Assembly (NCBI GenBank): GCA_050943115.1
Contig: JBMNON010000004.1
Location: 2,447 to 66,446, forward strand
Reading direction: 5' to 3'
Origin: Patescibacteria group bacterium
Lineage (GTDB): Bacteria; Patescibacteriota; Microgenomatia; UBA12405
Length of the DNA stretch: 64,000 nucleotides
Each line of letters opens with the position of its first letter. The first letter of the stretch is position 1. The position numbers and the translations under genes are program-made. The notes under the pieces are model-generated. The model saw only the letters and a program-made list of their open reading frames with translations. It had not been told where the DNA came from and did not search any database. This document shows, piece after piece, positions 3,823 through 38,765 of this stretch.

Positions 3823-5145
3823 ATGATTACTAAAACTTTAAAAGCCTTTCTTATACCCCTCCCTTTTTTATTTTTGTATATATTATTATCAAATATTCCT
3901 TCCGCTGTTAACAGCGTCGAGGATTGCCTTTCTGGTGAGTTTAAGTTGGACAACTGGAAAGACTCTGATAAAAACGTAAACAAAAATTGGTCGGATACGC
4001 CCGGTTTCAACTGTTCTTATGGTATTCAGGCAGCCGACATCCAAATAAAAGCCGGAGATGGCACCTATTTTGAGGCAAGCTCCTGTTACGGCATAAGCTG
4101 GGATCAATCGTCTTGGTCTGCATGGGAAAAATGGCAGGGGGACGATAAAGGCACTGAGTGCAAGGATACCGTACAATGGTATTGTAAGTGCCCGCCCCAA
4201 CCGCCCACATCAACTCCTACAAACACACCCACCTCGACTTCTACTCCGACTCCAGATCCCACTTCCACCCCCACTCCGACACCTACCAACACCCCATTAC
4301 CAACATCAACACCGTCACCGCTACCGACTCCGACACCTACTCCTACAAACACACCCACCTCGACTTCTACTCCGACTCCAGATCCCACTTCCACCCCCAC
4401 TCCGACACCAAACAATACCCAAACACCAACTCAAACCCCTATTGCCACGCCAACTAAAACTGTCACACCTACCCCCACGCACACTCCAACCCCGACAAAT
4501 ACACCCGTCAGTAATCCCACCCCTACAGCCACCGACACTCCCTCAAGTAGCTCGGAGCCCACTTCTACTCCTCCAGCTGTTGGAGGCGACAACCCCATTG
4601 TTACTTCTATCACTAAAACTTCCACCCCTCAGGTTTTGGGAGCATCACAAAACTTTAATCCGATTATCGAATCAATCAAAAAATCCCTTGTCGGCCAGGT
4701 TCTGGGAACCTCTTTTTTAGCCAACACCTCTGCTCCCTTTAGCCCCCAGGAAAAAATGCCCTCCTCAAACCTCCCTACAGACGGTTCCATCCTTATTCCC
4801 AAGATTGGTCTTTCTCAGCCTTTATATCAGTCTGCCAGAATAGGACAGGAATTTCTTGTCGGTGACCATGAAGTTCTGTTGGCAGAAGTTGATAATACCA
4901 CTTTGATTTACGGTCACAATAGCCCGAAAATATTCGGAAACTTGTATAGGCTGAAATCCGGTGACGCAGTAATCGTAGATATGGGAGACTATTTTGAAAA
5001 TTATATTATTTCTTCCAAGCATTTTGTCCACCAATCCGATGCCGACTTCCTAAAAATTGCCGATCAGGACAATATCGTACTTATGACTTGCAGTTATTCT
5101 AAACCTGAATATCGGCACATATTTATTGCTACCAAAACCAGATGA
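3823..5145 (+). CDS. Sortase-domain transpeptidase with unusual architecture: N-terminal signal anchor, Cys-rich module, ~180-aa Pro/Thr linker, C-terminal sortase catalytic domain.
   Basis: C-terminal domain has the sortase catalytic triad context: LIYGHNS (His), IVLMTCSY (TLxTC Cys), [12 protein letters not shown] (Arg). Compare SrtA LTLITC...RKIFVATEV. The Cys-rich region (C...C...[13 protein letters not shown]) resembles the module in the protein at 16326..17369. Confidence 0.75.
4214..4409 (+). repeat. Two identical 70-nt direct repeat copies (4214-4283 and 4340-4409) inside the sortase PT-linker coding region.
   Basis: Exact 70-nt identity read from the sequence; each copy encodes [23 protein letters not shown]. 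The copies are 126 nt apart. This is a recent intragenic duplication and a slippage-prone site. Confidence 0.8.
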
Positions 5146-5681
5146 AAAAAATAATCAGATACATTATCCCGGTATTTTTACTTATAGTTTTACTTTTTCT
5201 AGTTGTCCGGTCCCAAGATAGTTCTAAAGATACTCCGGAAAGCAACAACTTGACGACAGAAAATCAATTAATTTTGCCTGAATCCTGGTTTTACTCAGAA
5301 GATAATCAAGGTGCGACTCTAAAGATTGAAAAGCTTTCGGACAATGATGTCAGACCGGGAATTATCTTATTAGAATCCGATCTGCCGCCTGAGATTACTC
5401 CAAAAACTTACGTTGATAATTTAATAAAAGGTGCCCGCTCCACCCTTCCCAGTCTAAAAATTATTTCCGATAAAGAATCTGTTGAAAACTATTATCTCCG
5501 AAGTTTTAATTCCAGCTACACTATTAATGGTCAAAAAATAAATATAATCCAAAGAATATACGTAATCGACTCGCAGGTTTATACCCTTACAGCTTCGTAT
5601 CTCCCCGTGGAAGCCAGTATAGAATCCGATGTCGAGCAGATTTTTAATTCCATTTTTCAGTCCGAAATCATTTCCAATTAA
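5142..5681 (+). CDS. Membrane-anchored hypothetical protein, translationally coupled to the sortase gene (ATGA overlap).
   Basis: N-terminal TM segment [15 protein letters not shown] followed by a ~150-aa extracytoplasmic domain. The 4-nt overlap with the sortase stop suggests co-expression. Confidence 0.45.
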
Positions 5682-6240
5682 CCAGCTGCCACCATCTTTC
5701 TACAAACTCCTGCCTCCTGTTCTGGTAATCAAGATAATAGGCATGTTCCCAGACATCGAGCACCAAAATCGGCTCCCAGTCATTTAAAGCCAACAAATTA
5801 TGCTTCTCTACTTGTCCTATCAAAAGATCGTTTTCAAAATTTTTCCATAATACGACCCAACCCGACCCCTCAACACTAACCGCCGCTTGACTGAATTCTT
5901 TCTTAAAAGTTTCAAAACTGCCAAAATTCCTTTCCAGGTTTTCCCGGACTTCTCCTTCCGGTTCATTATTTTCTTGAGGTGGCCTCATGCTTTGCCAAAA
6001 TATATCGTGAAAAATGACTCCGTTCAAATTGAAACTTAAATCTTTAAGCAACCCCTTCAATTGTATGCTGTCATCGCCATTGCGGAACTTTTCCAGCTTT
6101 TCCAGGTCCTGATTAGTATTATTCACGTATGAGGCATGATGCAAATCATGGTGAATCTCCAACTGCCTCTTTGAGATAACCGGTTCCAATGCATCATATT
6201 CATAGGGTAGGGGAGTTAGCGTGTAGTTTTTGACTGTCAT
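5668..6240 (-). CDS. sodA: Fe/Mn superoxide dismutase.
   Basis: Motifs HHDLHHASYVNN, FHDIFW, GSGWVVL and DVWEHAYYLDYQNRR are diagnostic of Fe/Mn-SOD. The likely start is the internal Met at 6240 (MTVKNYTLTPLPY); the track ORF extends 40 codons further upstream. Confidence 0.85.
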   Translation of the reverse strand: MTVKNYTLTPLPYEYDALEPVISKRQLEIHHDLHHASYVNNTNQDLEKLEKFRNGDDSIQLKGLLKDLSFNLNGVIFHDIFWQSMRPPQENNEPEGEVRENLERNFGSFETFKKEFSQAAVSVEGSGWVVLWKNFENDLLIGQVEKHNLLALNDWEPILVLDVWEHAYYLDYQNRRQEFVERWWQLVNWK

Positions 6241-6301
6241 ATAATATAGTAAGCAACTAATAATCTTTTTAAATGATAAAGAAATTAAGTAAGAATAACG
6301 T

Positions 6302-6949
6302 ATGAAAATTGACAAAAGTCGGACATACACTCCTGCTGCGATTATTTTAACCTCTTTCATTGTAGCCTTATATTTTTATCCGAAAGCACCCGATACTATG
6401 GCTACCCACTGGGGTATCGGCGGTCAGGCGAATGGCTATTCATCAAAAGCATTTGCTCTTTTTTTCATGCCCGTCCTGTCTTTGATTTTGTTAGCCCCTT
6501 TATTGCTTTTACCAAGTATCGATCCTTATAAGTCGAATCTTAAGAGGTTCTCCAAATACTTTTATAACTTTATCAACCTACTTTATATCTTCCTTTTTTA
6601 TTTGTATTCTTTGACAATTATTTGGAATCTTAATACTAGATTCAATCTAATTCAGGCCCTAGTTCCTGCTTTTGCCATCCTTTTTTATTACTCCGGAGTA
6701 CTTCTTGGACGCGCCCAAAGAAACTGGTTTGTCGGCATTCGTACACCTTGGACATTAATAAACGAAAAAGTTTGGGACAGTACCCACCGGCTTGCCTCGA
6801 AATTATTTAAGCTTACTTCTCTTATTTCTTTACTTGGTTTGATTGTTCCCAAGTTTGCTTTTATTCTCCTGGTAGTGCCAGTTGTGTTGGTATCTTTTTA
6901 CCTCTTTGTTTATTCATACCAAGAGTATCAAAAAATTAATCAATCCTAA
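6302..6949 (+). CDS. DUF1648/SdpI-family polytopic membrane protein.
   Basis: N-terminal HWGIGGQANGYSSK matches the DUF1648 signature and NWFVGIRTPWTL matches the SdpI/YhfL-type motif. Four or more predicted TM helices. Confidence 0.55.
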   Translation: MKIDKSRTYTPAAIILTSFIVALYFYPKAPDTMATHWGIGGQANGYSSKAFALFFMPVLSLILLAPLLLLPSIDPYKSNLKRFSKYFYNFINLLYIFLFYLYSLTIIWNLNTRFNLIQALVPAFAILFYYSGVLLGRAQRNWFVGIRTPWTLINEKVWDSTHRLASKLFKLTSLISLLGLIVPKFAFILLVVPVVLVSFYLFVYSYQEYQKINQS

Positions 6950-11817: not shown

Positions 11818-13431
11818 ATGAACATTAGGCAACGGCTTACCGTTTATACGACACGCCGGCAAAGCAGTATTCTTTCAGCTTCTATTGTTTTGGCTGTTAC
11901 CTTTGCCATATCGGCTGCCCTAGGTTATCTCCGGACCCGCTTTCTTTACGGCATGTTCTTTAAATGTTGCGCTTCTGAGTTGGATGCCTACAATGCTGCT
12001 TTCCGCTTACCGGATTTAATATTCAAGCTTTTAGTAACTGGCGCCTTATCAGCCTCATTCATTCCTGTATTTTCCGGCTATCTTCACAAAGATCCCAAGC
12101 AAGCCAACAAAATTGCCTCAACGGTAATAAACCTCCTATTTCTAGTTTTTATCGGTGCCGCCATAACACTTTTAATGTTTACCCGCCCCTTATCTGAACT
12201 CATTGCTACCGGTTTTACTTCAGAACAATTTGATTTAATGGTCAACCTTACCCGGATACTTTTGACCGCCCAAATCTTCTTCCTCATTAGCAATTTCATC
12301 ACGGCCATACTCCAAGTAAATCAGATTTTTCTCATTCCGGCCTTTTCTCCTATCGTCTACAACTTATTTATTATCCTTAGCATTTTCACGCTCGCCCCCC
12401 GCTTTGGTTTATATGGGGTTGCTTATGGTGCTGTTGTTGGTGCCTTTTTCCACCTGGCAATACAAATACCAATTGCTAGGCGAGTTGGATTTAATTATTC
12501 CTTGGTTGCCGATACAAAACTAAAAGGGGTCAGGGAAGTTGTTAGGTTAATGATCCCCCGCAGTTTGTCTTTGGGCTTAGGTGAAATTGAGAATACTGTT
12601 ACCTTATTCTTTTCCAGCACGCTTGCCGTTGGTTCCTTTTCCTTACTTAACTTAGCAATGCAACTTATATATCTCCCCTCCAGGATTTTTGGGACTACAG
12701 TAGGTCAAGCGTCATTACCGATTCTGTCGAAAAATATCGCCAGAAATGAGCTTAACACCTTTCGTCAAACCGTCAACAAAACTCTCCTTCAAAGTTTATT
12801 CATCTCACTTCCCATCGCCACGCTTTTGTTGATATTACGCCTGCCGGTAGTGAGAATTGCCTACGGATCAAGGCAATTTCCATGGGAAGCCACCGTACTT
12901 ACCGCCAAAACTCTGGCTTTCCTGACACCGGTTATAGTTTGCCAGGCTGCTATCCAAATCCTTGTTAGGTCCTTTTATGCCCTCCACAACACCAAAACTC
13001 CTCTACATATCTCGACCATTTCACTGCTTACAAACATTATCCTAAACTACACCTTTATAAAATTAACTGATCTTGGAATAATGGGGTTGGCTATCAGTTC
13101 GTCGGTAAGCAATATTATCCAGGTGTCCGGATTGATGTTTCTGTTTATCAAAAAAGTCGACGGCTTCAACTGGCTTTCAACCTTCAAATCGGCATTTAGA
13201 ATATTTATTGCTTCCTTAGCCGCGGGAGCGTCCACTTGGATGGTGTTCAAAGGTTTGGATCTTTTCTTGCTAAACACCAGCAGAACCATCAACGTTCTAT
13301 TGCTGCTCGGTTCCACCTCTGCCATAGGCGGTTCCATTTATCTGATTTTAGCTCACCTACTTAATATCGAAGAATTCGCCGAATATAAAAAGTATTTCCT
13401 GAAAACCAAGCGTTTTATTTCCGCCAAATAG
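11818..13431 (+). CDS. murJ: Lipid II flippase MurJ/MviN.
   Basis: About 14 TM segments; N-terminal FRLPDLIFKLLVTGALSASFIPVFS is the MurJ signature region; 537 aa. Confidence 0.85.
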   Translation: MNIRQRLTVYTTRRQSSILSASIVLAVTFAISAALGYLRTRFLYGMFFKCCASELDAYNAAFRLPDLIFKLLVTGALSASFIPVFSGYLHKDPKQANKIASTVINLLFLVFIGAAITLLMFTRPLSELIATGFTSEQFDLMVNLTRILLTAQIFFLISNFITAILQVNQIFLIPAFSPIVYNLFIILSIFTLAPRFGLYGVAYGAVVGAFFHLAIQIPIARRVGFNYSLVADTKLKGVREVVRLMIPRSLSLGLGEIENTVTLFFSSTLAVGSFSLLNLAMQLIYLPSRIFGTTVGQASLPILSKNIARNELNTFRQTVNKTLLQSLFISLPIATLLLILRLPVVRIAYGSRQFPWEATVLTAKTLAFLTPVIVCQAAIQILVRSFYALHNTKTPLHISTISLLTNIILNYTFIKLTDLGIMGLAISSSVSNIIQVSGLMFLFIKKVDGFNWLSTFKSAFRIFIASLAAGASTWMVFKGLDLFLLNTSRTINVLLLLGSTSAIGGSIYLILAHLLNIEEFAEYKKYFLKTKRFISAK

Positions 13432-14942: not shown

Positions 14943-16292
14943 ATGCGACAAGAAAAAAGGATACCGACACTCTTAGGACTGATCCTTCTCGTTCTATTTA
15001 TATTTGGAGGCGTTAGCCTAACCAGAAAAACAACATCTCTCAATACAAAAGCTAGTAATCCCTGTAAACCAATCAACCCCCAAGTAACCAACATTACCAA
15101 CAACTCCGCCGATATCTCTTTTCTAACAGAGTCCACTTGCTCATCAGCAATTATCATTACCGACAGGACAATTACTAACTTTAGGGAAAACAGCCAGGTG
15201 CACTACTTTCAGATAACTAGTTTACAAACCTCTACTGACTATACCTTTTCTTTCTTAATAAACGGCAACCGGCAGGAAAGCAGTAATTACAAATTTACAA
15301 CTGCCGGACAGCCATCAGGCAACATGCCCACATCAAACTTGGCTTGGGGAAAAGTTTATACCCCGGATCATCAACCGGCAATTGACGCTATCGTTTATCT
15401 AAATATTCCGGGGGCTTCTCCTCTGTCTTCTCGGGTTACGTCAAACGGATATTGGAATATCTCATTGGCTACTAGTTTTGATATTAATCAGAACACCTGG
15501 TTCACTCCGCCGGAAAACATAGAGGAAGATATCGTCGTACTTTACCCCAACTCTCCTCCGACCCAAATCACCAGTAGCACATCAAGAAACAATCCGGTAC
15601 CTGATATCATAATCGGTCGCAACTCATTTTCTTCAGTTAGCGCCAGTGGCGAAGAACCACCCGGTGTTATAGATCTTCCCGATCCTGGAGCTGTCCAAAT
15701 ACCCCTTGATATTATCAACCCCAAAAATAACGAATCAATAAATACCCAAAAACCCGATTTTTTTGGTAGCGGACCGGCAAATACCGTAGTCGAAATTCAG
15801 GTTGAATCACCCCAAACATTTACCGGCCAAGTCCACATAAATGATGATGGATCATGGAATTGGTCTCCTCCTGAAAATTTGGAGCCGGGAGAACATACAA
15901 TTACTGTTACTGCTACTGACCCCGAAACTGGTTTGGTAGAAACAGTCAAAAGAAGATTCGTTGTTCTGGCGGCTGATAACGACAACCTTGCCTTCACCGC
16001 TTCACAATCAGCCAGTCAAGCTAGCCCTACTCCGACAACAATACCCACCCCAACAGCCAAAGTTAGTAGCGCGAGTCCGTCTCCAACTCAAATACCAACT
16101 GTAACACCAGCAACAATTCCCACCAAAAAACCGGATGCACCAACACCAATTCCATCTATTACTTCTTCTAGTTCCGGCACCCAATCCAGCTTACTCGAAA
16201 GCGGACAGACCACCCCTACTTTACTTACTTTCATTGTTTCTACATCCCTGATTGGTCTTGGTTTAAGGCTGTTAAGGAAAACAAGTATTTAA
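14943..16292 (+). CDS. Large cell-surface protein: signal peptide, FN3-like and Ig-like (Big) domains, Pro/Thr/Ser linker, C-terminal TM plus basic tail (LLRKTSI).
   Basis: N-terminal hydrophobic signal. The segment ...NITNNSADISFLTES...YTFSF is FN3-like beta-sandwich, and PGEHTITVTATDPETGL is Ig-like/Big. PTPTTIPTPTAKVS is a linker, and the terminal hydrophobic stretch plus RLLRKTSI resembles a sorting-signal layout without LPXTG. Confidence 0.6.
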   Translation: MRQEKRIPTLLGLILLVLFIFGGVSLTRKTTSLNTKASNPCKPINPQVTNITNNSADISFLTESTCSSAIIITDRTITNFRENSQVHYFQITSLQTSTDYTFSFLINGNRQESSNYKFTTAGQPSGNMPTSNLAWGKVYTPDHQPAIDAIVYLNIPGASPLSSRVTSNGYWNISLATSFDINQNTWFTPPENIEEDIVVLYPNSPPTQITSSTSRNNPVPDIIIGRNSFSSVSASGEEPPGVIDLPDPGAVQIPLDIINPKNNESINTQKPDFFGSGPANTVVEIQVESPQTFTGQVHINDDGSWNWSPPENLEPGEHTITVTATDPETGLVETVKRRFVVLAADNDNLAFTASQSASQASPTPTTIPTPTAKVSSASPSPTQIPTVTPATIPTKKPDAPTPIPSITSSSSGTQSSLLESGQTTPTLLTFIVSTSLIGLGLRLLRKTSI

Positions 16293-16325: not shown

Positions 16326-17369
16326 ATGCTTGTTCGTAAATATCTTTATGCCATTTTTACTATAGTCTTTTTCTCGCTATCACTCGTCGGTACCCTTTAC
16401 TTGGTTCAAAGAAATCAGGATATTAGGGACAGGGCTGAGGGTTGTCCTGAATGTCAGGAATGGAACGGTAGTTCTTGTTACTGGGATTTTAGCGGAGGAG
16501 GCGATGACTATTACATCCGATGTTGTTGCGCCCACCCTGATATATGTTCTGAGAGCGACGATTGGATGCAAAATTATTGCCAATCAAGCCCGGACGAATG
16601 TACCGTCTATCACCAAGGATCTTGTTTTACTGTAGAAAATTGCCAAGGTGAACAGGTTCAAAGATTTCACAAAAACTATACTGGTACGTCCGATAATTAT
16701 GATCAGGGTTTCTGCGGAACAACTGAAAATCCCGAATCACGCATAACTGTTCCCGATAATAACCAACATACTTATTGTGCTAACGCCAATCCTTGCGAGT
16801 GCGCCCAAATCGATCACCACTTCGACGGTGCTGGTGTCGATGGACCTGGAGGTGTCTGTGAGTGTAAAGCTTGTCCTCCACCCACCAATCCTCCTACCCA
16901 AATTCCTACAACCCCACCCACCAATACACCTACTCTGACCCCCACTAAAACTCCCACCCCTACAGCCACTAAAACTCCGACTCCTACTGCCACCAAGACT
17001 CCCACCCCAACCCATACGCCCACTCCCACCAAAACTCCGACTCCTACTGCCAGCAACACCCCGCCTCCAGGATCTACTCCGACCTCAACTCCTATTCCTA
17101 CAAACACGCCCACTCCCACCAAAACTCCAACCCCTGTCCCCCCATCTGGCACGCCCGCTCCAAGCAATACTCCTGCTCCCAGCAATACCCCAATACCGAC
17201 CCTGGTTATTGCCCAAAATACACCCGTTCCTACCGACGCCCCTGCAATAGCTCAGGCTCCCAGCCCAACTACAGTCACCTTGCCGCAAGCTGGCGTAGAC
17301 CTTCCGGTAAAGATAATCGCCGTTGTCGGTACAATTATCACATTGTTCGGCTTTTTGATATTATTATAA
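16326..17369 (+). CDS. Cys-rich secreted protein with long Pro/Thr linker and C-terminal LPQAG motif followed by a hydrophobic anchor; candidate sortase substrate.
   Basis: About 24 Cys in the first 190 aa (CPECQEW, CCCAHPDIC, CECKACPPP). A 130-aa PT repeat region (TPTPTATKTPTPT). C-terminus TLPQAGVDLPVK-IIAVVGTIITLFGFLILL. The CECKACPPPTNPPT junction mirrors [13 protein letters not shown] in the sortase. Confidence 0.6.
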   Translation: MLVRKYLYAIFTIVFFSLSLVGTLYLVQRNQDIRDRAEGCPECQEWNGSSCYWDFSGGGDDYYIRCCCAHPDICSESDDWMQNYCQSSPDECTVYHQGSCFTVENCQGEQVQRFHKNYTGTSDNYDQGFCGTTENPESRITVPDNNQHTYCANANPCECAQIDHHFDGAGVDGPGGVCECKACPPPTNPPTQIPTTPPTNTPTLTPTKTPTPTATKTPTPTATKTPTPTHTPTPTKTPTPTASNTPPPGSTPTSTPIPTNTPTPTKTPTPVPPSGTPAPSNTPAPSNTPIPTLVIAQNTPVPTDAPAIAQAPSPTTVTLPQAGVDLPVKIIAVVGTIITLFGFLILL

Positions 17370-17370
17370 T

Positions 17371-18303
17371 TTGATGACTACATCTTTAAGGGTTAATCTT
17401 CTTTCTCTGATAGAAGCGCTACGTCCGGTTCAGTGGATTAAAAATTTAAATTTATTCGCCGCCGCTATCCTCAATGGTCAGTTAACAAATGCTGAAGTCT
17501 TTTTTAAAAGCCTGGGTGCTTTTATTGTCTTTAGTCTTTTATCATCTTCTTCCTATTTGATAAATGATCTTGTTGACATTAACAACGACAGGAACCACCC
17601 TGTTAAAAAAAACCGCCCATTGGCCAGGGGTGACGTCTCTGAATCACTTGCCATCTTTACTGCCTTCCTACTGCTTATCCTGGGCTTATTCCTGGCAATG
17701 TTTATCAACCCTGGTTTTCTGTTTATATCCCTTGTGTTTGTTTTTCTTCAATATACATATTCTCTGGTCCTAAAAAAGAAGGCTATCCTCGATATTATCG
17801 GTATTGCTTTTTTCTTTATCCTAAGGGCATATGCTGGTGAAATTGCTACCGGTTACCATTTACCCGTATGGATAATGTTGACGGTAATTTTTCTCTCCTT
17901 GTTTATCGCAAGCGGTAAAAGACGCAGCGAGCTTGTGAATACCGGTTCCAAAACCAGAGCCGCTCTAAAAGGTTATGGTACTTCTCTTCTTAACTTTTAC
18001 ACTACCATGTTCGGCGTTTGCACCCTTATCACATACGCCATGTTTACCTTTCTGGAAGAGCCTGTCAGATTTCAAGGACTAATTCATAATTTTTTGCTGG
18101 AAAATTTTCCGGCAGCGCTTGACCGCAAGTGGTATATGGTAACGCTTCTTCCGGTGATATTTGGTATTATGCGCTACGGCCAGATTATCTTTGAAATGCA
18201 GGAAGGGGAGAGGCCTGAACGGGTTGTTGCTACTGATATCCCGCTTCTGATGTCCATCCTCGCATGGGGTCTAATGATAATCACCATTATTTATGTTCTT
18301 TAA
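17371..18303 (+). CDS. UbiA-family prenyl-phosphate phosphoribosyltransferase, decaprenyl-phosphate 5-phosphoribosyltransferase (DPPR synthase)-like.
   Basis: LRPVQWIKNLNLF, first Asp-rich motif YLINDLVDINNDRNHPVKKNRPLARG (NDxxDxxxD) and second motif in a polytopic membrane protein; 310 aa. The pattern matches the Rv3806c-type subfamily rather than quinone UbiA/MenA. Confidence 0.7.
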   Translation: MMTTSLRVNLLSLIEALRPVQWIKNLNLFAAAILNGQLTNAEVFFKSLGAFIVFSLLSSSSYLINDLVDINNDRNHPVKKNRPLARGDVSESLAIFTAFLLLILGLFLAMFINPGFLFISLVFVFLQYTYSLVLKKKAILDIIGIAFFFILRAYAGEIATGYHLPVWIMLTVIFLSLFIASGKRRSELVNTGSKTRAALKGYGTSLLNFYTTMFGVCTLITYAMFTFLEEPVRFQGLIHNFLLENFPAALDRKWYMVTLLPVIFGIMRYGQIIFEMQEGERPERVVATDIPLLMSILAWGLMIITIIYVL

Positions 18304-19891
18304 GAGAAAAAATATCTTCGGGTATCTTTCTTGTGCATTGTTACTGCTGGCCTTATTAACTCGTTTCTATAAATTGGACTGGGGTGACGGCTACTTTTTT
18401 CATCCTGATGAAATGAATATGGCTGTAGCCATAACTAGGTTTTCCACCCACAACCTTGATCCTCACTTTTATGCCTATGGCCAGTTCCCTTTATATCTTA
18501 CATATTTTTCCATCAAAACCTTCAATTTTATATCTAATGCCTCTTTCACTTCTCCTGTTAGCTTAGAAAGTGCCGTCTTTGGACTTAGGATTTGGTCTGC
18601 CCTTTTCTCACTTGCTTCCCTACTTCTTCTCTATCGTCTCTCTCGTCTTCTTTTTCCCGATAAAGTTTCTCCCCGGATATTCGTCTTATTACTCATTTTT
18701 ACACCCGGACTTATACAACTTTCCCACTTTGGTACTACTGAATCGTTTCTGTTTTTTGTTTTTTGTTTCAACCTTCTCATTGCTGTAAAGATTTTTGAAA
18801 AGTTTAAGTTAACCAGTCTTGTCCTGGCTGCTTTTATTAGCGGTATTGCTGTTGGTACAAAAATCAGTGCGATAATTATGTTCGGTCCCGTTCTCTTGTC
18901 GTTATTATTGACAACGGTAAAGACAAAAAAAATCGCTTATTATATCCTCCGAAACCTAATTTTCTTTCTGGTGGTGCTTTTAACATTTAGCCTATCTTCT
19001 CCTTATAACCTTGTTAACTTTAATGATTATAAATCCGCTCTTAGTTACGAAACCGCCGTCGCTCTGGGTCACATGAAAGTCTTCTATACTAATCAATTTT
19101 TGGATACAAAACCATACTTGTTTCAGTTACAAAAAGTATTCCCCTACACTCAGGGAATATTTATTTTTTTGCTTTCGGCACCTGGTTTAGTTCTGCTTAT
19201 AAAGAAAATGAACCACAAATGGTTATTAATCCTGCTTCCTTCGTTTGTTTACTTTCTTTACAATGGTCAGCTTTATGTCAAATGGACCCGTTTTATGTCC
19301 CCTCTCTTTTTCCTCCCTCCCCTGCTTGCCACCTATTTTTTTAGCCATCTTCGTTCAAAAACCTTAATCGTTTCACTCATAGCTATCTCCATTATTCCCG
19401 GTGTCTTCTTTTGGACAAGCAGATTTGAAACCGATGTCCGCCTCAAGGCGTCTGATTGGTTTATCGATAACATCCCTGCAAATACCAAGATATTGTCCGA
19501 GTCAGGCAATGTAATTAATATCCCCCTTGCTTCCGTTCCCTATGATGTTAACAATTTCGACTTTTATGTTTTGGAAAATAATCCCCTGCAGCTTGAGTTA
19601 CTATCAAAAGAGCTTCGGCTATCTGAGTACATCATCGTTCCCTCAAGAAGGGTTTTTAAAAACCAGCAGGGAGATAGGTTCCCCACCAGCCGGAAGTACT
19701 ATGAGGCTTTGTTTTCAGGTGACTTGGGGTTTGTGGAAATTAAAAAGTTTGAGCGGAACAATTCCTTTTTACTTAACTCAGAAGATGCAGAAGAAACCTG
19801 GTCCGTGTTTGACAATCCTACTATTAGAGTATTTAAAAAGTTTAACCATTTATCCCTGGAAGAGTATAAAAAAATTCTTGGCGCCACATGA
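18293..19891 (+). CDS. GT-C fold membrane glycosyltransferase (GT39/PMT-ArnT-like), copy 1.
   Basis: About 11 TM helices; first extracytoplasmic loop carries the HPDE(MN) acidic motif typical of PMT/ArnT-type GT-C enzymes; large C-terminal soluble domain; 532 aa. Confidence 0.65.
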   Translation: MFFKRKNIFGYLSCALLLLALLTRFYKLDWGDGYFFHPDEMNMAVAITRFSTHNLDPHFYAYGQFPLYLTYFSIKTFNFISNASFTSPVSLESAVFGLRIWSALFSLASLLLLYRLSRLLFPDKVSPRIFVLLLIFTPGLIQLSHFGTTESFLFFVFCFNLLIAVKIFEKFKLTSLVLAAFISGIAVGTKISAIIMFGPVLLSLLLTTVKTKKIAYYILRNLIFFLVVLLTFSLSSPYNLVNFNDYKSALSYETAVALGHMKVFYTNQFLDTKPYLFQLQKVFPYTQGIFIFLLSAPGLVLLIKKMNHKWLLILLPSFVYFLYNGQLYVKWTRFMSPLFFLPPLLATYFFSHLRSKTLIVSLIAISIIPGVFFWTSRFETDVRLKASDWFIDNIPANTKILSESGNVINIPLASVPYDVNNFDFYVLENNPLQLELLSKELRLSEYIIVPSRRVFKNQQGDRFPTSRKYYEALFSGDLGFVEIKKFERNNSFLLNSEDAEETWSVFDNPTIRVFKKFNHLSLEEYKKILGAT

Positions 19892-21588
19892 TCAAAAAAG
19901 AAAAAATTTTATTATTGCTTATTATCATTCTGGCAGCAATATTAAGGTTTACCGGTCTTAATTGGGATCAGAATCAACATCTTCACCCCGATGAAAGATT
20001 TTTGACAATGGTTGCCGATGCCATCAAAATTCCCCAAAGTTTTTCAGATTACCTCGACCCTCAGTTATCCTCTATGAGTCCCTATAATAAAGGATTTGAC
20101 TTTTTTGTCTATGGCACCCTCCCTCTCAATTTAACTAAAATCTTGGCAGTCAACTTCGGCTTCGACGGCTATTCAAAAATATATTTACTTGGCCGTCTCT
20201 TATCTTCGTTGTTCGATCTCTCTACTTTGCTTTTAACGTATATTATTTGTAAGAACTTGTTTAGCAAAAAATCCGCCCTCTTTGCTGCTCTGGCTTATTC
20301 TCTGATGGTGCTGCCGATTCAGCTGTCACATTTTTTTACTGTTGATACTTTTCTTAACTTTTTCATGGTTTTAACATTCTATTTTCTTGTAAAAGCTGCC
20401 GACAAACCCCGTCTGTTATATTTCCTGGGATTGTCTTTTTCCTACGGACTTGCCCTATCCTCAAAAGTTTCTGCCCTGTACTTTCTACCCATAATTGGGA
20501 TATTCTTTTTATTTATTTTATTTAAAGGGAAATGGTCCGGCAGCACTCTTTTCTTGATGATGATCGCATTGCTTAGTACCGCAATTAGCTTTCGACTTGC
20601 TCAGCCCACAGCCTTTGCCCAGTCTTCTTTTTTAAACTGGCAGCCAAATGAACAATTTCTCGGTAATTTAAAAACTCTCAAATCCATGGGTAATATCGAC
20701 TCCTGGTTTCCGCCTGATGTTTATTGGATTTCTCGTCAATCAAAACTTTTTGCACTTGAGCATGTAACAATGTGGGCACTGGGAATACCTCTCGGTTTAC
20801 TCTCGCTAATTTCTCTTCCTTTTTCTACCTACCGCATCATTCGTACCACAAATCTCCATCCGTTTAAAAACTCCAAGACCTTCTCGATACTGTCAATAAT
20901 AATTTGGGTTGTTTTTCTCTTCGTTTATCAATCCTTTCAATTCACCAAAAACCTGCGTTATTTTTTAATTATTATGCCCTTTCTTTCAGTCCTTGTTGGG
21001 TATCTGCTTGCCTCTTCCGTAAAACATTTTCAAAAATTTATTCCATCCAAACTCTATTTGGGCATTATTATCATCCTTGTATCAATATGGCCTCTTTCAT
21101 TTATCTCTGTCTATCTTAGACCTCACAGCCGCATTCTGGCCTCATATTGGATTTACGAAAATATTTCCAAAGGATCTCAATTAACCTGTGAACATTGGGA
21201 TGATTGTTTGCCCCTGAATATCAGCTCCAGCCAAAATCCATCCGTTTATGAAATAACTCAGCTCAACCTTTATGATCCTGAAAGCGAAGAAAAATGGCAA
21301 AACATAAATTCCGTATTGGCTAATTCCGACTACATGGTAATTACCAGTAATCGCCTCTACGGTTCTATTCCCTTTGTCAGCAACCGCTATCCCCTAACTA
21401 CTGAATTTTATGAAAAACTTTTTGGTAACCAATTAAATTTCACAAAAGTAGCTGAATTCCACCCAAAACCTTGTTTTCTTGGAATAGAATCCCCTCTGAC
21501 GTGTATAAACGATGAATGGGCCGAGGAATCTTTCACCGTTTACGATCACCCCAAAGTTCATATATTCAAGAAAATTAGCCTTCAATAA
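19888..21588 (+). CDS. GT-C fold membrane glycosyltransferase (GT39/PMT-ArnT-like), copy 2 (paralog of the upstream gene).
   Basis: Same architecture and the same loop-1 motif (HLHPDERF). 566 aa; 4-nt overlap with copy 1. Confidence 0.65.
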   Translation: MIKKEKILLLLIIILAAILRFTGLNWDQNQHLHPDERFLTMVADAIKIPQSFSDYLDPQLSSMSPYNKGFDFFVYGTLPLNLTKILAVNFGFDGYSKIYLLGRLLSSLFDLSTLLLTYIICKNLFSKKSALFAALAYSLMVLPIQLSHFFTVDTFLNFFMVLTFYFLVKAADKPRLLYFLGLSFSYGLALSSKVSALYFLPIIGIFFLFILFKGKWSGSTLFLMMIALLSTAISFRLAQPTAFAQSSFLNWQPNEQFLGNLKTLKSMGNIDSWFPPDVYWISRQSKLFALEHVTMWALGIPLGLLSLISLPFSTYRIIRTTNLHPFKNSKTFSILSIIIWVVFLFVYQSFQFTKNLRYFLIIMPFLSVLVGYLLASSVKHFQKFIPSKLYLGIIIILVSIWPLSFISVYLRPHSRILASYWIYENISKGSQLTCEHWDDCLPLNISSSQNPSVYEITQLNLYDPESEEKWQNINSVLANSDYMVITSNRLYGSIPFVSNRYPLTTEFYEKLFGNQLNFTKVAEFHPKPCFLGIESPLTCINDEWAEESFTVYDHPKVHIFKKISLQ

Positions 21589-22708
21589 TTTCTCTAAAAC
21601 TGTTTACGGTTCTGTTCTCCGAGAAAACTTTTTTCATTCTTTTGGAATTATTTGGCCTTTTATTATTTACTTCATTAACTATTGCCCAAGCTAGATTATT
21701 TTTCTCCCTTGTATCAAACAAGGTACCGGCACCACTGATCAGGATTGGCACTCTAACCCCGGGCAAACTACTGGCAACAACCCTAGCTCCACCCAAAATT
21801 GCTTCAGCCTGAACCATTCCAAAAGCTTCGGTAGAATTTGTACTTGGCAATACCAGCAAGTCTATGTTTTTATAAAAATAAGACAACCCTTCATTTGTCA
21901 AAAATCCTAAGTGGCTTACTACTTTTCTGTGCTTATTCATCAACTTGTGAATCCGCTTGATATAATCTATTTCTCCGATTGCATTCTTTGGACCCACTAA
22001 ATAAACCCCCAGATTGTTTCCCAAAGCTTTTCTTATTGGCCTTATCACCTCAAGTAAGCTTTCTATGCCTTTCTCTGCCGACAACCTCCCCACAAAACCG
22101 ATTTTATAAGCTATATCCCTTGTTGCCTTATCTATCAAGTTTTTTTCTTTTTTCAAAACCATTTCTTTACTTAATCTGATTGGTGGATAAACTACTCTGA
22201 CCTTGTCAAGATAACGGGAGACTACCGGCGACAGGGAGGCGTAATCCATGCTTGAACAGACAATAATATCCGCAATGTTGCAACAAAGTTGGTTTATTAA
22301 TTGTAATACCCATTCAATAATCCTATTCACTAAACCACAGGGTAGTCTGACATCGCAGTGATAGATAACTATACTTTTTTTGTTCAATATTTTTGCAGCC
22401 AGCAATAAATAAAACGCTTCAGGTTGGGGGAGGTTGCTTATTACAGTATCGCTTTTACGAACCTCTTGCCATCCCTGCCAAAACCATTTCGGCATTATCA
22501 GTCCCTTACTAAATTTTTTCCAAACTGGAACCCTGACAACTCTAACTCCACCCTCTGATTCTTCAAGTGGCAACTTTTTGTCGTGTTGCGAGGTGATAAC
22601 AGAGATGCAATCACCTTTCTTCCTCAAGGCTACGGCCAGCCTAGACACGTAGACGCTCAACCCGGAAGTGTATGGCAAATAATAACTTAAAGAAAATAAT
22701 ATTCTCAT
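21575..22708 (-). CDS. GT4-family glycosyltransferase (GT-B fold).
   Basis: N-terminal SGLSVYVSRLA-type GT4 start; C-terminal EAFGMVQAEAILGGARVVAS (E-x7-E motif); 377 aa. Confidence 0.75.
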   Translation of the reverse strand: MRILFSLSYYLPYTSGLSVYVSRLAVALRKKGDCISVITSQHDKKLPLEESEGGVRVVRVPVWKKFSKGLIMPKWFWQGWQEVRKSDTVISNLPQPEAFYLLLAAKILNKKSIVIYHCDVRLPCGLVNRIIEWVLQLINQLCCNIADIIVCSSMDYASLSPVVSRYLDKVRVVYPPIRLSKEMVLKKEKNLIDKATRDIAYKIGFVGRLSAEKGIESLLEVIRPIRKALGNNLGVYLVGPKNAIGEIDYIKRIHKLMNKHRKVVSHLGFLTNEGLSYFYKNIDLLVLPSTNSTEAFGMVQAEAILGGARVVASSLPGVRVPILISGAGTLFDTREKNNLAWAIVNEVNNKRPNNSKRMKKVFSENRTVNSFREIIEG

Positions 22709-23250
22709 TAGGCTTCTAGTGATAACGCTGTACCGATACTCTTATCAAACACTTTACATGCTTGGTTATTTTGATGCAGTACCTTTTGTTGTGGCAGCTG
22801 TTTTTTGAGATATTCAACAATCAACTTGTCATCCTCGACAAATATATCCGGTTTTATCCTTTCCAGTACTTTTTTCTTGAATATATGTGGTTGTTCATTT
22901 TTCAAATTCAGATGAATTTCGCAAAATACCTTATCCAATTTTCTTTTTTTCAACCAAAGATGGGTCTCCCTCTCCAGAAAAGAGTATCGGCTGGATATGG
23001 CCACTACATTACACTTCTCTGTTCCGGCAGCCCTTTTAATCAAGTCCAAATTCGCCTTGATTGCTGGTCTAAAAAAATAGATGTGGGATATTTTTCTGAT
23101 AAGTTGTTCTATTCTTGTTCTTGGGAATCGATAGTGCAGCCTTTTTGCCTTGCCTTTAAACAAAAGTTCAATTAAGATTTTTGGTATCAATGGAGGCTTG
23201 TCGATAATAACTCCGTCCAGATCAACCGCCAGCACATACTTTCTCTTCAT
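22708..23250 (-). CDS. HAD-superfamily phosphatase-like protein.
   Basis: Motif I VDLDGVI (DxDxV), motif II VVAISSR, C-terminal K...FVEDD (motifs III/IV); 180 aa. Confidence 0.5.
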   Translation of the reverse strand: MKRKYVLAVDLDGVIIDKPPLIPKILIELLFKGKAKRLHYRFPRTRIEQLIRKISHIYFFRPAIKANLDLIKRAAGTEKCNVVAISSRYSFLERETHLWLKKRKLDKVFCEIHLNLKNEQPHIFKKKVLERIKPDIFVEDDKLIVEYLKKQLPQQKVLHQNNQACKVFDKSIGTALSLEA

Positions 23251-23297
23251 TTTCTTTGATTATAACAGTGCCGATTTTTCTTTGGATATAATAAGCC

Positions 23298-23873
23298 ATG
23301 AATCCATATACTAGCAGAGCCAAAGACTTTTTGTTTTGGCAACCACCACTGGACTACCTGGCCTTATTGTTGTCAAAAAAATTTGGCCGCCAACTTTTCG
23401 TCTTCCTAAATTTTTTTATCTGGCCCTACCTTTTTTACTTATCTGTAATTCTTACCATTACTGATCCAAATATATTCTGGCAAATCTTTATTGCCATGTT
23501 TATAAGTGTTTTTGTCGAATATTTGCTCAAATCTTTGCTCCCTTGGAAGCGGCCCATTACCAAAACCCAAAACTTTCTCCCTTTTGGTATTCATCACCAA
23601 TGGGCTTTAAAGGGCAGTTTTCCTTCGGGGCATACGGCAAAAACACTTATATTCTTTCTTTTTATACTCCAATATGGTGTCCACTCGCCTCTAATTTTTA
23701 TCTTAATAAATGTCCCCCTGGTGTTAGCCCGGATATTTTTGGGATTCCATTATCCGGTTGATATCTTTGGAGGTCTGCTCACCGGTTTTATCTCTTGGCT
23801 TTTTACCCACCAACTCATCTTTCCTTCAGAGTTTACTGATCCACTTCGTGATATATTTAAGCTAGTTTTTTAA
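23298..23873 (+). CDS. PAP2-family (type 2 phosphatidic acid phosphatase-like) membrane phosphatase.
   Basis: All three PAP2 motifs are present: KRP (LPWKRPITK), PSGH (FPSGHTA) and SRx5Hx3D (LARIFLGFHYPVDIFGG). 191 aa with 5-6 TM helices. Confidence 0.75.
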   Translation: MNPYTSRAKDFLFWQPPLDYLALLLSKKFGRQLFVFLNFFIWPYLFYLSVILTITDPNIFWQIFIAMFISVFVEYLLKSLLPWKRPITKTQNFLPFGIHHQWALKGSFPSGHTAKTLIFFLFILQYGVHSPLIFILINVPLVLARIFLGFHYPVDIFGGLLTGFISWLFTHQLIFPSEFTDPLRDIFKLVF

Positions 23874-23875
23874 AT

Positions 23876-25963
23876 ATGATCTCCGACTTAAAATTCATCA
23901 TATTCTGGTGGCTTTCTATCTTTTTGATCTCATCAATTTGTTTACCTCTAGTTCTTAGTATTTTTAAAAAATTTTGGGACAGGGGATACGTTTTTAGCAA
24001 GATACTTTCTCTCGTTGTTCTGACCTATTCTGTTTTTGTTCTTGGAGTCATAAAGTTATTACCCTTCACCAACCTTTCGATTTGGTTTTTAATTTTAATT
24101 TTCTTATCTCTAAACGGACTTTATCTATCCCGTCCCAAAAGGTTCAAAGCTTTTACTGGCTTGATTAAAGAAAACTGGAAAAAATTCCTTTTTGAAGAAA
24201 TTCTGTTTTTGCTCATCTTAATTGTTTGGTCTTTTGTTCGGGGGTTTAATCCTGCAATTGAAGGTTTGGAAAAGTTCATGGATTGGGGTTTTGTCAATTC
24301 AATGCTTCGTTCGGTTTATATGCCTCCCGTTGATATGTGGTTTGCCAATGAACCTATAAACTACTATTATTTCGGTCACCTTATTTTTGCTCTTGTTACC
24401 AAATTGTCAAATATTAACAGTACCATTACATATAATTTATCAATCGCATCCATTGCCGCGCTAACCTTCGTCAGCACTTTCTCCCTTTCGCTCAATCTGG
24501 TTTATTGCTTACTAAAAAAAAGTTCGTTAGCAAAATTAATTCTTGCCGGAACGGTGTCGGCCCTCTTGTTGACTTTCGGTGGCAATCTCCATGCTGTCTA
24601 CAAGATTGGCAGAATCAACATGGACAACAATCAGGGCAAGCTGGTTTTGAATGCAGGTGAAATTCAGAAGGCCGCTTCAGGTTATTGGTATCCTGACGCA
24701 ACCAGATTTATTGGCTTTGATCCCGAAACCAGCGATAAAACCATCCATGAATTTCCTATCTATAGTTTTGTCGTTGCCGACCTTCACGGTCACCTAAATG
24801 ACATCCCTCTTGTTCTTTTCTTTCTGGCCTTTTTGTTCTCGGTATCCCTTTTGCCAAAGCAATTTTCTTCCTGGAAATTACTAATTCCTGCCGGTTTTCT
24901 TTTGTCTATTGCCTATATGACAAATGCTTGGGACATAGCAGTTTATGGTCTCTTTTTCGGTCTTTATGTTTTCCTCTACAAATTACGACAGTATAATTTT
25001 AGGGATTCTCTGGTTAAAACTCTTTTTAATGGATTTCTGGTAATTTTATTCTGGTATTTATTTACTCTGCCTTTTTCACTGAACTTTACTCCGATGATGG
25101 AAGGCTTGCGTTTGTCTGATGCCCATTCACCCTTTTATCAGCTTTTTATACTTTATGGCGGGTTTTGGTTAATCGCCCTACCATTTGTGATTTTCTTTTT
25201 TGTAAAAAATAAATTAAACATTAAGAAAGCCACTCTTTCCGATGTATTTGTTCTCTCCTTACTCATCCTGGCGACACTTCTTATTATTATGCCCGAAGTC
25301 TTTTACATAAAAGACATTTATATTTACGAACACCGGAGAGCCAACACGATGTTCAAACTGGTCTATCAGGCATTTATCCTCTACTCTCTAGCTTCTGGCT
25401 ACATCCTTGTCCGACTCAAGCTGTCTTTGAAAAGAGTGCTTTTCGGGATTTATGCATTAGTTTTTTCTTTGGTTTTTATTTCTCACCTAATTTATCCTTA
25501 CTTTGCAACTAAATCATATTACTCTTTTAAGGAATACCATGGGTTGTGGGGCTTGGACTTTCTTGAAGACAAATATCCGGATAACTATGCTGCCATAAAA
25601 TGGTTAAACGCTAATGTCGAAGGACAGCCCAACATTATTGAAGCTGCCGGAGATAGCTATACTACTTATAACCAAGTATCTATGGCCACCGGATTGCCAA
25701 CTGTCCAAGGCTGGTTGGTTCATGAATGGTTGTGGCGTGGAGGGTATGACCAACCTGGAGCTAGAGCTGAAGAAGTCAAAACTGTCTACGAGTCGACAGA
25801 TATTGAAAAAGTCAAACCTATTCTCCAAAAGTATTCTGTTAAGTATATTTTCATCGGCGACAAAGAGTACGAAAAGTATCCCCAGCTAAACACCCAAAAG
25901 TTTGAAGAAATCGGCGCCAACATTGTTTTTGAATCAGGGAAAACCAAAATATTTCAACTTTAA
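23876..25963 (+). CDS. DUF2298 / Chlor_Arch_YYY-type large polytopic membrane protein (putative GT-C-like glycosyltransferase).
   Basis: 695 aa with about 14 TM helices. NYYYFGH 'YYY' motif in an early loop. C-terminal soluble domain with HEWLWRGGYDQPGARAEEV. Confidence 0.6.
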   Translation: MISDLKFIIFWWLSIFLISSICLPLVLSIFKKFWDRGYVFSKILSLVVLTYSVFVLGVIKLLPFTNLSIWFLILIFLSLNGLYLSRPKRFKAFTGLIKENWKKFLFEEILFLLILIVWSFVRGFNPAIEGLEKFMDWGFVNSMLRSVYMPPVDMWFANEPINYYYFGHLIFALVTKLSNINSTITYNLSIASIAALTFVSTFSLSLNLVYCLLKKSSLAKLILAGTVSALLLTFGGNLHAVYKIGRINMDNNQGKLVLNAGEIQKAASGYWYPDATRFIGFDPETSDKTIHEFPIYSFVVADLHGHLNDIPLVLFFLAFLFSVSLLPKQFSSWKLLIPAGFLLSIAYMTNAWDIAVYGLFFGLYVFLYKLRQYNFRDSLVKTLFNGFLVILFWYLFTLPFSLNFTPMMEGLRLSDAHSPFYQLFILYGGFWLIALPFVIFFFVKNKLNIKKATLSDVFVLSLLILATLLIIMPEVFYIKDIYIYEHRRANTMFKLVYQAFILYSLASGYILVRLKLSLKRVLFGIYALVFSLVFISHLIYPYFATKSYYSFKEYHGLWGLDFLEDKYPDNYAAIKWLNANVEGQPNIIEAAGDSYTTYNQVSMATGLPTVQGWLVHEWLWRGGYDQPGARAEEVKTVYESTDIEKVKPILQKYSVKYIFIGDKEYEKYPQLNTQKFEEIGANIVFESGKTKIFQL

Positions 25964-38332: not shown

Positions 38333-38764
38333 ATGCAAGTCAAAATTAAGCGCTTCGATAAAAATCTGCCTTTGCCCGCTTATAAAAGTACCGGTGCTGC
38401 CTGCACTGATCTTTATACTCGGGAAGATGCCATCATTCCCCCGGGAGGAATTTCCTATATCCCCTTAAATATCGCCCTTGAAGTTCCTGCAAGTCACCTG
38501 GCAATTATTGCTCCCAGAAGCTCAACTCACAAAATCGGCATTATGCAAGCCAATGGTATCGGCATTATTGATTCCGATTACTGCGGTGATAACGATGAAT
38601 TGGTTTTTGCAGCTTATAATTTCACCCCAGAATCCGTCAAGATTGAAAAGGGTACCCGTCTTGCCCAACTTATAATATTGGGTTATGAAAACATAGATTT
38701 TAAAGAAACCGATACCTTGGGCAATACTGACAGGGGTGGCTTCGGTTCTACAGGTCAAAAATAA
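38333..38764 (+). CDS. dut: dUTP diphosphatase.
   Basis: KSTGAACTDLY, IIDSDYCGD, RLAQLII, C-terminal GNTDRGGFGSTG motif V; 143 aa. Confidence 0.85.
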   Translation: MQVKIKRFDKNLPLPAYKSTGAACTDLYTREDAIIPPGGISYIPLNIALEVPASHLAIIAPRSSTHKIGIMQANGIGIIDSDYCGDNDELVFAAYNFTPESVKIEKGTRLAQLIILGYENIDFKETDTLGNTDRGGFGSTGQK

Positions 38765-38765
38765 A

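Follow-up and report, generated by a model that had tools for sequence, protein, structure and literature searches.

What does a sortase gain by holding its catalytic domain behind a long stalk, and by carrying a pentapeptide that resembles a sorting signal ahead of its own catalytic barrel? The question is raised by a gene at positions 3823..5145 of a 64,000-nucleotide stretch of a Patescibacteria genome (contig JBMNON010000004.1 of assembly GCA_050943115.1; this whole stretch is referred to below as the window), whose product is entered at NCBI as MGI5840970.1, 'MAG: sortase [Patescibacteria group bacterium]'. The protein consists of a hydrophobic N-terminus, a Cys-rich head, a stalk rich in Pro and Thr (P/T), a conserved segment that contains the pentapeptide LANTS, and a minimal sortase domain with which the chain ends. 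LANTS falls in an alignment column that reads L-[P/A]-x-T-[G/A/S] across a family of similarly built proteins, and the interpretation favoured here, to which we give a probability of about 0.4 on the basis of sequence comparison and of analogy with engineered fusions, is that the stalked sortase would process itself, either in cis or between copies. Put more broadly, the pattern of conservation suggests that the window enzyme probably processes or regulates itself.

The enzyme, its family and its partner gene

Profile searches and structure prediction agree in identifying the product of open reading frame (ORF) 3823..5145 as a genuine cysteine transpeptidase of the sortase fold, in which the His365/Cys423/Arg431 triad is intact. 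It matches Pfam PF04203 with E=8.2e-13 and 48.6 bits (cut-off 26.6) over residues 325-437, in an alignment that spans profile positions 3-123 of 125; phmmer against PDB sequences retrieves class C and class A sortases, and the His of LIYGHNS and the Cys of VLMTC align with the catalytic residues of 7cg9, 8t28 and 7d6p. His365, Cys423 (VLMTCSY) and Arg431 (YRHIF) are invariant in a 29-sequence family alignment, from which AlphaFold2 (AF2) predicts a beta-barrel for residues ~314-440 with a predicted local distance difference test score (pLDDT) of 86-97. Foldseek against PDB gives 130 matches at E<=1e-3, the best 50 of which are all sortases at probability 1.0. An initial annotation of the locus had described a sortase of unusual modular build, and the profile score, the predicted fold and the alignment with the active sites of solved sortases bear this out; the catalytic His and Cys that it named also stand, whereas the relevant Arg is R431 (YRHIF) and not the terminal R440.

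Profile and fold comparison, which had been suggested as a means of placing the enzyme among the known classes, identify a sortase but no single class. The fold neighbours among the best 50 Foldseek matches belong to classes C, A and E with similar scores (TM about 0.5-0.67), with lid-bearing class C sortases and C. diphtheriae SrtA among the top matches, and no class-specific profile passes: the general NCBIfam model TIGR01076 reaches 34.1 bits, under its cut-off of 39.35, the class C profile NF033745 reaches 30.5 (cut-off 160), the class D profiles NF033746 and NF058671 reach 20.9 (cut-off 165) and 21.8 (cut-off 140), and no class A-specific NCBIfam profile matched. Assignment to one class was accordingly rejected. 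Class A sortases are built with an N-terminal transmembrane (TM) segment and a short linker, whereas here ~290 residues (head, stalk and conserved segment) intervene between the hydrophobic N-terminus and beta1; the class C lid motif DP[W/F/Y] is absent before beta1, where L-[P/A]-x-T-[G/A/S] stands instead; and because only 17 residues follow Cys423, which is also the family median, there is no C-terminal TM segment. The identity of the enzyme is not new in itself, since the NCBI entry already says 'sortase' and sortases are known to be common across the Candidate Phyla Radiation (CPR), being near-ubiquitous in Microgenomates (Meheust et al. 2019, fam000526; PMC6744442).

The gene is preceded by a GGGAG ribosome-binding site 6 nt 5′ of its ATG, and its parts are laid out in Table 1. 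The sole hydrophobic segment of the protein is N-terminal, with an uncharged run of 16 residues that equals the family median; small-x-small sites are found in the N-termini of the family at varying distances from the hydrophobic run. The Cys-rich module that had been placed in front of the stalk is present, with six Cys. The stalk is also real, although the strong compositional bias covers 133 aa (67% P+T, 78% P+T+S) and not the 180 aa first given for it: a short S/T spacer separates the stalk from the pre-catalytic segment, and 180 is arrived at only by counting on through the spacer to residue ~300. An exact duplication in the stalk, initially put at 70 nt, measures 71 nt (4213-4283 = 4339-4409) and sits inside a two-copy 126-nt tandem repeat, so that the suggestion of a changing stalk length holds and evolution of that length through tandem duplication is supported. 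The long alternative-frame and antisense ORFs that run across P/T-coding repeats in the window (4104..4415, 4431..4625 and 16814..17185 on the minus strand, 4188..4457 on the plus strand) are low-complexity compositional artefacts and not genes.

The stalked architecture is not unique to the window, and sequence comparison marks it as a family trait, common to some 60 of the cluster representatives searched. An exhaustive HMMER scan with residues 262-440 against 1.84 billion (1.84e9) cluster representatives gave 155 matches at E<1e-3, of which 61 also pass E<1e-10; the majority of these strong matches measure 300-626 aa and have the sortase region at the extreme C-terminus. Word-indexed homolog searches were near-empty (the catalytic part retrieved only an identical fragment, the N-terminal module nothing, and a family profile four proteins); it took the exhaustive scan to make the family visible. 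Comparison of full ORFs in 16 distinct genomic and metagenomic loci, together with the cluster-representative sequences, reveals a common build: a hydrophobic N-terminus, a variable head, a P/T stalk, a conserved segment of ~47 aa and a minimal barrel, with no C-terminal anchor. More than 150 residues precede the His in 49 of the 61 core representatives, and P/T-rich sequence of at least 30 aa is present in 48, the stalks being of very different lengths. The family is small and divergent, and the window member comes from Patescibacteria; in a distant Nanosyncoccus sortase (L010), both the stalk and the partner gene described below are missing.

The heads differ in kind from member to member. 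They include fn3, thrombospondin type 1 repeats (TSP_1), DUF4215 Cys-rich repeats or the Cys module of the window protein, which has homologues in the heads of no fewer than nine other family members (KAG, CY and C-K-D-ISH positions are kept), the clearest being that of a 419-aa protein at locus L005. This module matched no Pfam family, and AF2 with eight sequences models it at a pLDDT of only 43. The largest relative seen, a 705-aa ORF at L011 5461..7578 with the same sortase cassette and the motif LMATA, carries by eye DUF4215-like Cys repeats, TSP1-like repeats, a calcium-binding-like DTDNDGTGDAC stretch and fn3, and shows that heads are shuffled freely in front of the motif and sortase cassette. 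Two further observations concern the stalk. Public gene calls often end inside it, as with P0023 (236 aa, in a 360-aa ORF at L002 5970..7052) and P0012 (208 aa as against 388 aa at L016 9392..10558), and database lengths therefore under-report the architecture. In addition, a CxC, CPxC or CxxC cluster stands directly before the P/T stalk in many family members and in the candidate substrate ORF 16326..17369 (examples are window 4183..4206, L002 5970..7052, P0030, P0034, P0042, P0018 and P0062, with strings such as CKCPP, CECKACPPP, CPDCEIPTITCPPCP and CPSCPDCPSCP), for which a disulfide knot and a metal site are candidate roles; it is this recurring string that the initial annotation had picked up.

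The second constant of the family is a neighbour. The start codon of a gene for a 179-aa protein overlaps the stop codon of the window sortase (ATGA), and a partner of this kind abuts or overlaps the sortase gene in 16/16 distinct loci (18 contigs) that include downstream DNA, the partners in L002-L009 and L011-L019 matching a partner profile at E 1e-38 to 1e-74. Among the loci examined, conserved gene order thus marks the partner as obligatorily linked to stalked sortases. What kind of domain it contains is less sharply defined: the window member matches DcrB of Pfam weakly, partner members match DcrB in 7/9 cases (best 8.7e-7), LpqN in two and PsbP in one, and the best PDB sequence match, LpqN, is not significant. 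The partner may serve to hold a freed sortase domain at the membrane, and as a strictly linked DcrB/LpqN-like protein it offers a lead on how an anchor-less sortase is retained there or finds its nucleophile.

The embedded motif and what it may do

The segment ahead of the barrel is conserved, with the consensus vLG..NyNPLveGIk.Sy.G.vLG...[motif]........kLPsgN......l.IPkiG and variants of the form VLG..N[YF]NP[LI]..I..S..G.VLG before the motif and k[LM]PSsN after it. Window residues 270-316 align with it throughout, and Thr302 lies in a column conserved to at least 90%. Where the window protein has LANTS, its relatives have LPKTG (8 times), LPQTG, LPDTG, LPTTG, LPNTG, LPYTG or LPWTG, and also LAKTG, LARTG, LAQTG, LAGTG, LAFTG, LPxTA, LMATA, LPNAG/LPDAG and others, with some clades carrying a degraded motif (LMATA, PYKTA or TVQTD). 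The strict pattern [LIMFWVY][PA]x[TA][GAS] is fitted in this one alignment column by 47 of the 61 aligned representatives, whereas other positions of the same segments fit it at a background rate of 0.0005; exact LPxTG is present in 13, Thr in 58, and the fifth residue is G in 30 cases and A in 21. The nominal binomial P of about 1e-144 is inflated by relatedness, even though any two representatives are less than 50% identical.

The position of the motif is as constrained as its content. In 46/62 sequences the motif Thr precedes the Pro of 'IPkiG' in beta1 by 24-25 residues, a spacing as tight as that from His to Cys. The motif tracks a long N-terminal extension (35/51 with, 6/39 without; odds ratio 12), and it is nearly absent (1/27) from the ordinary ~180-aa sortases among the weaker matches. 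When members with P at position 2 are compared with those without, the top-associated columns (424, 425, 427 and 430) lie in the beta7/beta8 loop by Cys423, an association that is uncorrected for phylogeny and only suggestive. The departures from LPXTG have counterparts among known signals: LAXTG is the class E sorting signal (PMC5148588), and S. pyogenes SrtA, which was solved with LPATS and LPATA peptides (7s4o and 7s51, both Foldseek matches), tolerates Ser at position 5 (7s4o). Literature searches, with most subscription journals outside their reach, found no earlier description of a natural sortase that cleaves itself or that contains a sorting signal or pseudo-substrate of its own, nor of the CPR stalked architecture and DcrB-like partner; the family-wide stalked layout, embedded motif and DcrB-like partner appear undescribed.

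Read from its N-terminus, the window protein follows the order of a sortase substrate (hydrophobic N-terminus, Cys head, P/T stalk, LANTS), and it is because head, stalk and motif stand in wall-anchored order that its first 300 residues look like one. Wall-anchored proteins carry their N-terminal head at the distal end, with the P/T region running through the wall. What differs is the part after the motif, where the cell wall sorting signal as defined for such proteins (PMC5148588) would be completed: the window protein continues with 20 residues of polar sequence, after which the sortase barrel begins, without the hydrophobic segment and positive tail of substrates.

If this arrangement is functional, the N-terminal ~300 residues would be a sortase substrate in effect, with the C-terminal membrane anchor replaced by the enzyme. 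After Sec export, Cys423 would attack the bond after Thr302, in its own chain or in that of a neighbouring copy, and a thioester would form between the sortase Cys and the head-stalk fragment. The fragment would then be passed to an amine nucleophile, probably a peptidoglycan or lipid II cross-bridge; a FemAB-family gene and MurJ are encoded in the window. The outcome would be a head displayed on its stalk and a freed sortase domain of ~15 kDa, which, perhaps retained by the partner, could work further rounds on substrates such as ORF 16326..17369 (LPQAG).

Self-processing is favoured because of the substrate-like order, the barrel in place of an anchor, and the behaviour of engineered fusions. 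Single chains that combine SrtA with LPETG cleave spontaneously, even during synthesis (PMC2901362), and a motif embedded ~25 residues from an active sortase would for this reason be expected to react. A more specific version, in which the proteins are natural 'self-sorting' substrate-sortase fusions that ligate their own head and stalk to the wall or to another protein, with the partner as dock or nucleophile presenter, is a possibility that we put forward tentatively; they would then be the counterpart in nature of the engineered STEPL design compared below.

A number of observations weigh against self-processing. The N-terminal hydrophobic segment can be read either as a signal peptide or as an uncleaved anchor, and the conservation counts rest on kin sequences that are not phylogenetically independent. 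The motif of the window protein and those of its closest relatives, LAGTS (L004) and LAATN (L005), are without the canonical P and G and are unlike those of the two candidate substrates nearby in the window (LPQAG, LLESG); given this degeneracy, LANTS may be cleaved only slowly, and its segment could serve in part as a lid. AF2 places a helix at residues 280-288, with the rest of the pre-catalytic segment at low pLDDT (about 55 in the motif loop), and does not confidently dock the motif. The strongly conserved helix-plus-loop context ahead of the motif looks less like a free sorting signal than like a regulatory lid. Finally, P0006, P0035 and P0069 keep the motif with little or no passenger, which means that display of a passenger cannot be the whole purpose of the motif.

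Several of these observations count for the main rival, according to which the motif is never cut. The N-terminal segment would be a permanent anchor and L-[P/A]-x-T-[G/A/S] an uncleaved pseudo-substrate that fills the enzyme's own groove, gating access or shielding the thiol, a role comparable to that of the DP[W/F/Y] lid in class C; head and stalk would be accessory, for example in spacing or localisation. Precedents exist: the ~50-residue helix-plus-lid extension of class C overlaps the position of the LPAT peptide (PMC3493515), and lid-bearing class C sortases and C. diphtheriae SrtA are, as noted, among the top fold matches; the active site of SrtE1 holds a tripeptide of its own N-terminal linker (PMC5148588), and PDB 7f87 is SrtA 'bound with self derived tripeptide'. 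The fixed spacing between motif and beta1, the conserved upstream context and the persistence of the motif in members without a passenger are what a lid would lead one to expect, and for the sub-clade of the window, whose degenerate LANTS, LAGTS and LAATN differ from the local LPQAG, it is to a lid that we lean, even though LAxT and a Ser at position 5 both have, as noted, counterparts among known signals and substrates. Extended to the family the explanation looks doubtful, if still worth serious consideration: known lids are not complete sorting signals, whereas 13/61 representatives hold a perfect LPxTG by the sortase in a configuration whose engineered equivalents self-cleave; the shuffling of adhesin-type heads on wall-spanning-type stalks in substrate order is left unexplained, as is the link between the motif and long N-extensions; and AF2 gives no confident docking.

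Candidate substrates and the surrounding genes

Two candidate surface-protein genes lie ~10 kb downstream of the sortase gene. The first to be proposed as a substrate, ORF 16326..17369, does end in LPQAG and a hydrophobic tail, as the initial annotation had it, and the tail is without the usual basic residues. Its layout parallels that of the sortase (signal or anchor, Cys-rich head, P/T stalk, sorting-type pentapeptide). The C-terminus of this ORF (17280..17320), 'LPQAGVDLPVKII', is also very similar to 'IPQAGIDLPVAIG' in the beta1 region of P0066, a short and distant sortase, which is probably a coincidence. The second candidate, ORF 14943..16292, ends in LLESGQTTPTLLTFIVSTSLIGLGLRLLRKTSI, where a hydrophobic segment is followed by the basic tail RLLRKTSI, and its LLESG can be taken, tentatively, as a non-canonical and divergent sorting signal. 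Beyond these two, the flanks of the 16 family loci contain no convincing substrates; L017 15412..16044 was considered and set aside, as it looks like a polytopic membrane protein.

The parallel between sortase and substrate underlies the explanation first offered for this locus: an N-terminally anchored enzyme that stands far out on its P/T stalk, in a thick wall or on an appendage, and a Cys module shared with the substrate as a recognition device. A sole hydrophobic segment at the N-terminus, the lack of a C-terminal TM segment, a long stalk of variable length and the succession of Cys-rich head and P/T stalk in both proteins are all compatible with such a tether, which requires that the N-terminal segment stay on the protein as an anchor. 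However, the Cys modules of the two proteins are not homologous. BLASTP aligns P/T low-complexity sequence only, with the Cys-rich parts at E=1.5, and a profile of the N-module family against ORF 16326..17369 yields an hhalign probability of 0.25%, so that a shared enzyme/substrate recognition module is not supported and was rejected; all that the two have in common here is a short 'C-x-C-PP then P/T run' string at the head/stalk junction. Nor can there be a common recognition device in the family, because the heads of the relatives (fn3, TSP1, DUF4215 and others) are unrelated to one another. The topology would moreover place the head beside the membrane, lipid II as the canonical nucleophile resides in the membrane (PMC5148588), and both the embedded motif and the partner gene are left without explanation. 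The tether is now less attractive than it first appeared, and we consider it improbable.

It could also be that another, housekeeping sortase cuts the embedded motif, anchoring head and stalk and releasing the window sortase, which would be a passenger or pro-enzyme. Many members have a motif that would serve well as a generic sorting signal, and the window covers 64 kb of the genome, such that a second sortase could lie elsewhere; no second member of the stalked family was found within it. That the spacing is fixed and that the motif is associated with the beta7/beta8 loop of its own protein point instead to the adjacent catalytic domain, and the TM segment and charged tail that hold substrates for a membrane sortase are missing, all of which makes this a distinctly unpromising alternative. 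That the pentapeptide is a structural element which never enters the active site and resembles a sorting signal by chance would accord with the lack of AF2 docking and with the decay to LMATA, PYKTA or TVQTD in some clades, but it is very improbable when 47/61 members match the substrate motif of their own enzyme class, with a nearly invariant Thr and G/A at position 5, and when the LPxAG and LAxTG variants mirror real signals.

From its gene content (a FemAB-family cross-bridge aminoacyltransferase, the MurJ flippase and alanine racemase), the organism probably makes peptidoglycan with an interpeptide bridge, the usual sortase nucleophile. Directly downstream of the two surface-protein genes is a membrane glycosyltransferase and lipid-carrier block (17371..25963), and its two genes of the protein-O-mannosyltransferase (PMT) family may mean that P/T stalks are O-glycosylated, that of the sortase included, which is a speculative suggestion. 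Otherwise the 64-kb window is housekeeping DNA, with a GC content of 41% and no tRNA, rRNA or other Rfam matches. Next to the partner gene, the superoxide dismutase ORF read from its first ATG has a hydrophobic N-terminal extension of ~44 residues; because the Pfam domains begin at residue 45 and the long form is absent from the protein collection, the start is probably an internal Met (MTVKNY...).

Table 1. Coordinates of the stalked sortase gene, its parts and other features of the window.
Feature	Position	Strand	Basis or remark
Sortase ORF, 440 aa + stop	3823..5145	+	Patescibacteria stalked sortase family
Basic and hydrophobic N-terminal segment, residues 1-30	3823..3912	+	Signal peptide or signal anchor
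Cys-rich N-module, residues 31-125	3913..4197	+	Cys 35, 64, 88, 113, 121, 123
P/T-rich stalk, residues 126-258	4198..4596	+	Composition
Exact 71-nt duplication in stalk, copy 1	4213..4283	+	Period 126 nt
Exact 71-nt duplication in stalk, copy 2	4339..4409	+	Period 126 nt
Pre-catalytic segment, 47 residues (270-316)	4630..4770	+	Family alignment
LANTS pentapeptide, residues 299-303, sorting-signal-like	4717..4731	+	Family alignment column
Minimal sortase barrel, residues 317-440	4771..5142	+	Pfam, AF2 pLDDT 86-97, Foldseek
Catalytic codons His365; Cys423; Arg431	4915-4917; 5089-5091; 5113-5115	+	Family alignment
Partner gene, 179 aa, N-terminal TM and DcrB/LpqN/PsbP-like domain	5142..5681	+	Profile matches
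Fe/Mn superoxide dismutase ORF	5668..6360	-	Pfam domains from residue 45
MurJ lipid II flippase	11818..13431
Second candidate substrate: signal/TM, Big_13 Ig-like domain, S/T/P-rich region, LLESG (16191-16205)	14943..16292	+
Candidate substrate: signal/TM, 18-Cys head, P/T stalk, LPQAG (17280-17294), hydrophobic tail	16326..17369	+
UbiA	17371..18303
PMT-family glycosyltransferases (PMT/PMT_2), two	18293..19891 and 19888..21588
GT4	21575..22708	-
PAP2	23298..23873
DUF2298	23876..25963
FemAB-family peptidoglycan cross-bridge aminoacyltransferase	27938..28975
Alanine racemase	38736..39920

The significance of the locus lies in the combination of motif and enzyme. To our knowledge, sortase regulation as it is currently known is limited to class C lids. 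A complete sorting-signal-like motif fixed before its own active site in a natural family would be new: sortases would be regulating themselves in a way not seen before, or else this would be the first substrate-enzyme fusion in nature to anchor itself. The host of the window belongs to the Patescibacteria (CPR), which are ultra-small and thought to live attached to other cells, and the surface biology of which is almost unknown; variable adhesin-type heads (fn3, TSP1, Cys-rich) on length-changing stalks are plausible host-contact molecules. Minimal (about 125 residues) and divergent enzymes with possibly unusual specificities (LAxTS, LPxAG) could also interest protein-ligation technology, where a passenger-motif-sortase design was invented independently.

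Comparison with known systems

The CPR sortase family fam000526 (PMC6744442) is the nearest point of reference by taxonomy, in that it documents sortases in CPR. The paper gives presence and absence only, and no description of the stalked architecture, embedded motif or partner gene was found in it (Meheust et al. 2019).

By structure, class C sortases such as SrtC1 and SrtC2 of group B Streptococcus (PMC3493515) are close. They have the same barrel and triad, are among the top fold and sequence neighbours, and share an N-terminal extension of ~50 residues, a helix followed by a loop, placed just before beta1; in class C the loop occupies the groove. The differences are equally clear, as the class C lid is DP[W/F/Y] and the window family has a full L-P-x-T-G-like pentapeptide, class C enzymes have a C-terminal TM segment and no upstream head or stalk while the window sortase has the reverse, and no pilin operon is evident in the window.

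Class E sortases are characterized by a conserved Tyr in the beta3/beta4 loop. Among them, S. coelicolor SrtE1 (PMC5148588) has LAXTG specificity and so shares the Ala at position 2 with LANTS, its own N-terminal linker lies in its groove, and the fold similarity is comparable (T. fusca SrtE is matched). In contrast to the window protein, SrtE1 consists of a cytoplasmic extension, a TM segment and a linker of ~30 residues with no head or stalk, and the bound peptide, AQA, is no sorting motif.

In the order of their parts, Gram-positive LPXTG surface proteins match the N-terminal 300 residues, with the same succession of secretion signal, head, Pro/Thr wall-spanning region and pentapeptide. After the motif they have a hydrophobic segment and a positive tail, whereas the window protein has the sortase domain there.

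For the protein as a whole there are artificial parallels. The STEPL construct, attributed to Warden-Rothman et al. in 2013 (reference 23 of PMC9075798), is said to run in the order protein, LPXTG, linker, SrtA, and this order of passenger, motif, linker and sortase is also that of the natural stalked family. In the SrtA-LPETG-target fusions (Mao; BISOP, PMC2901362), sorting motif and sortase are likewise combined in one chain, which cleaves itself. Engineered fusions use S. aureus SrtA and a flexible Gly/Ser linker, while the natural family, known from sequence, has a conserved linker of fixed length. Overall, the enzyme class itself is already known, and what appears new relative to known sortases is the stalked layout, the embedded motif and the partner.

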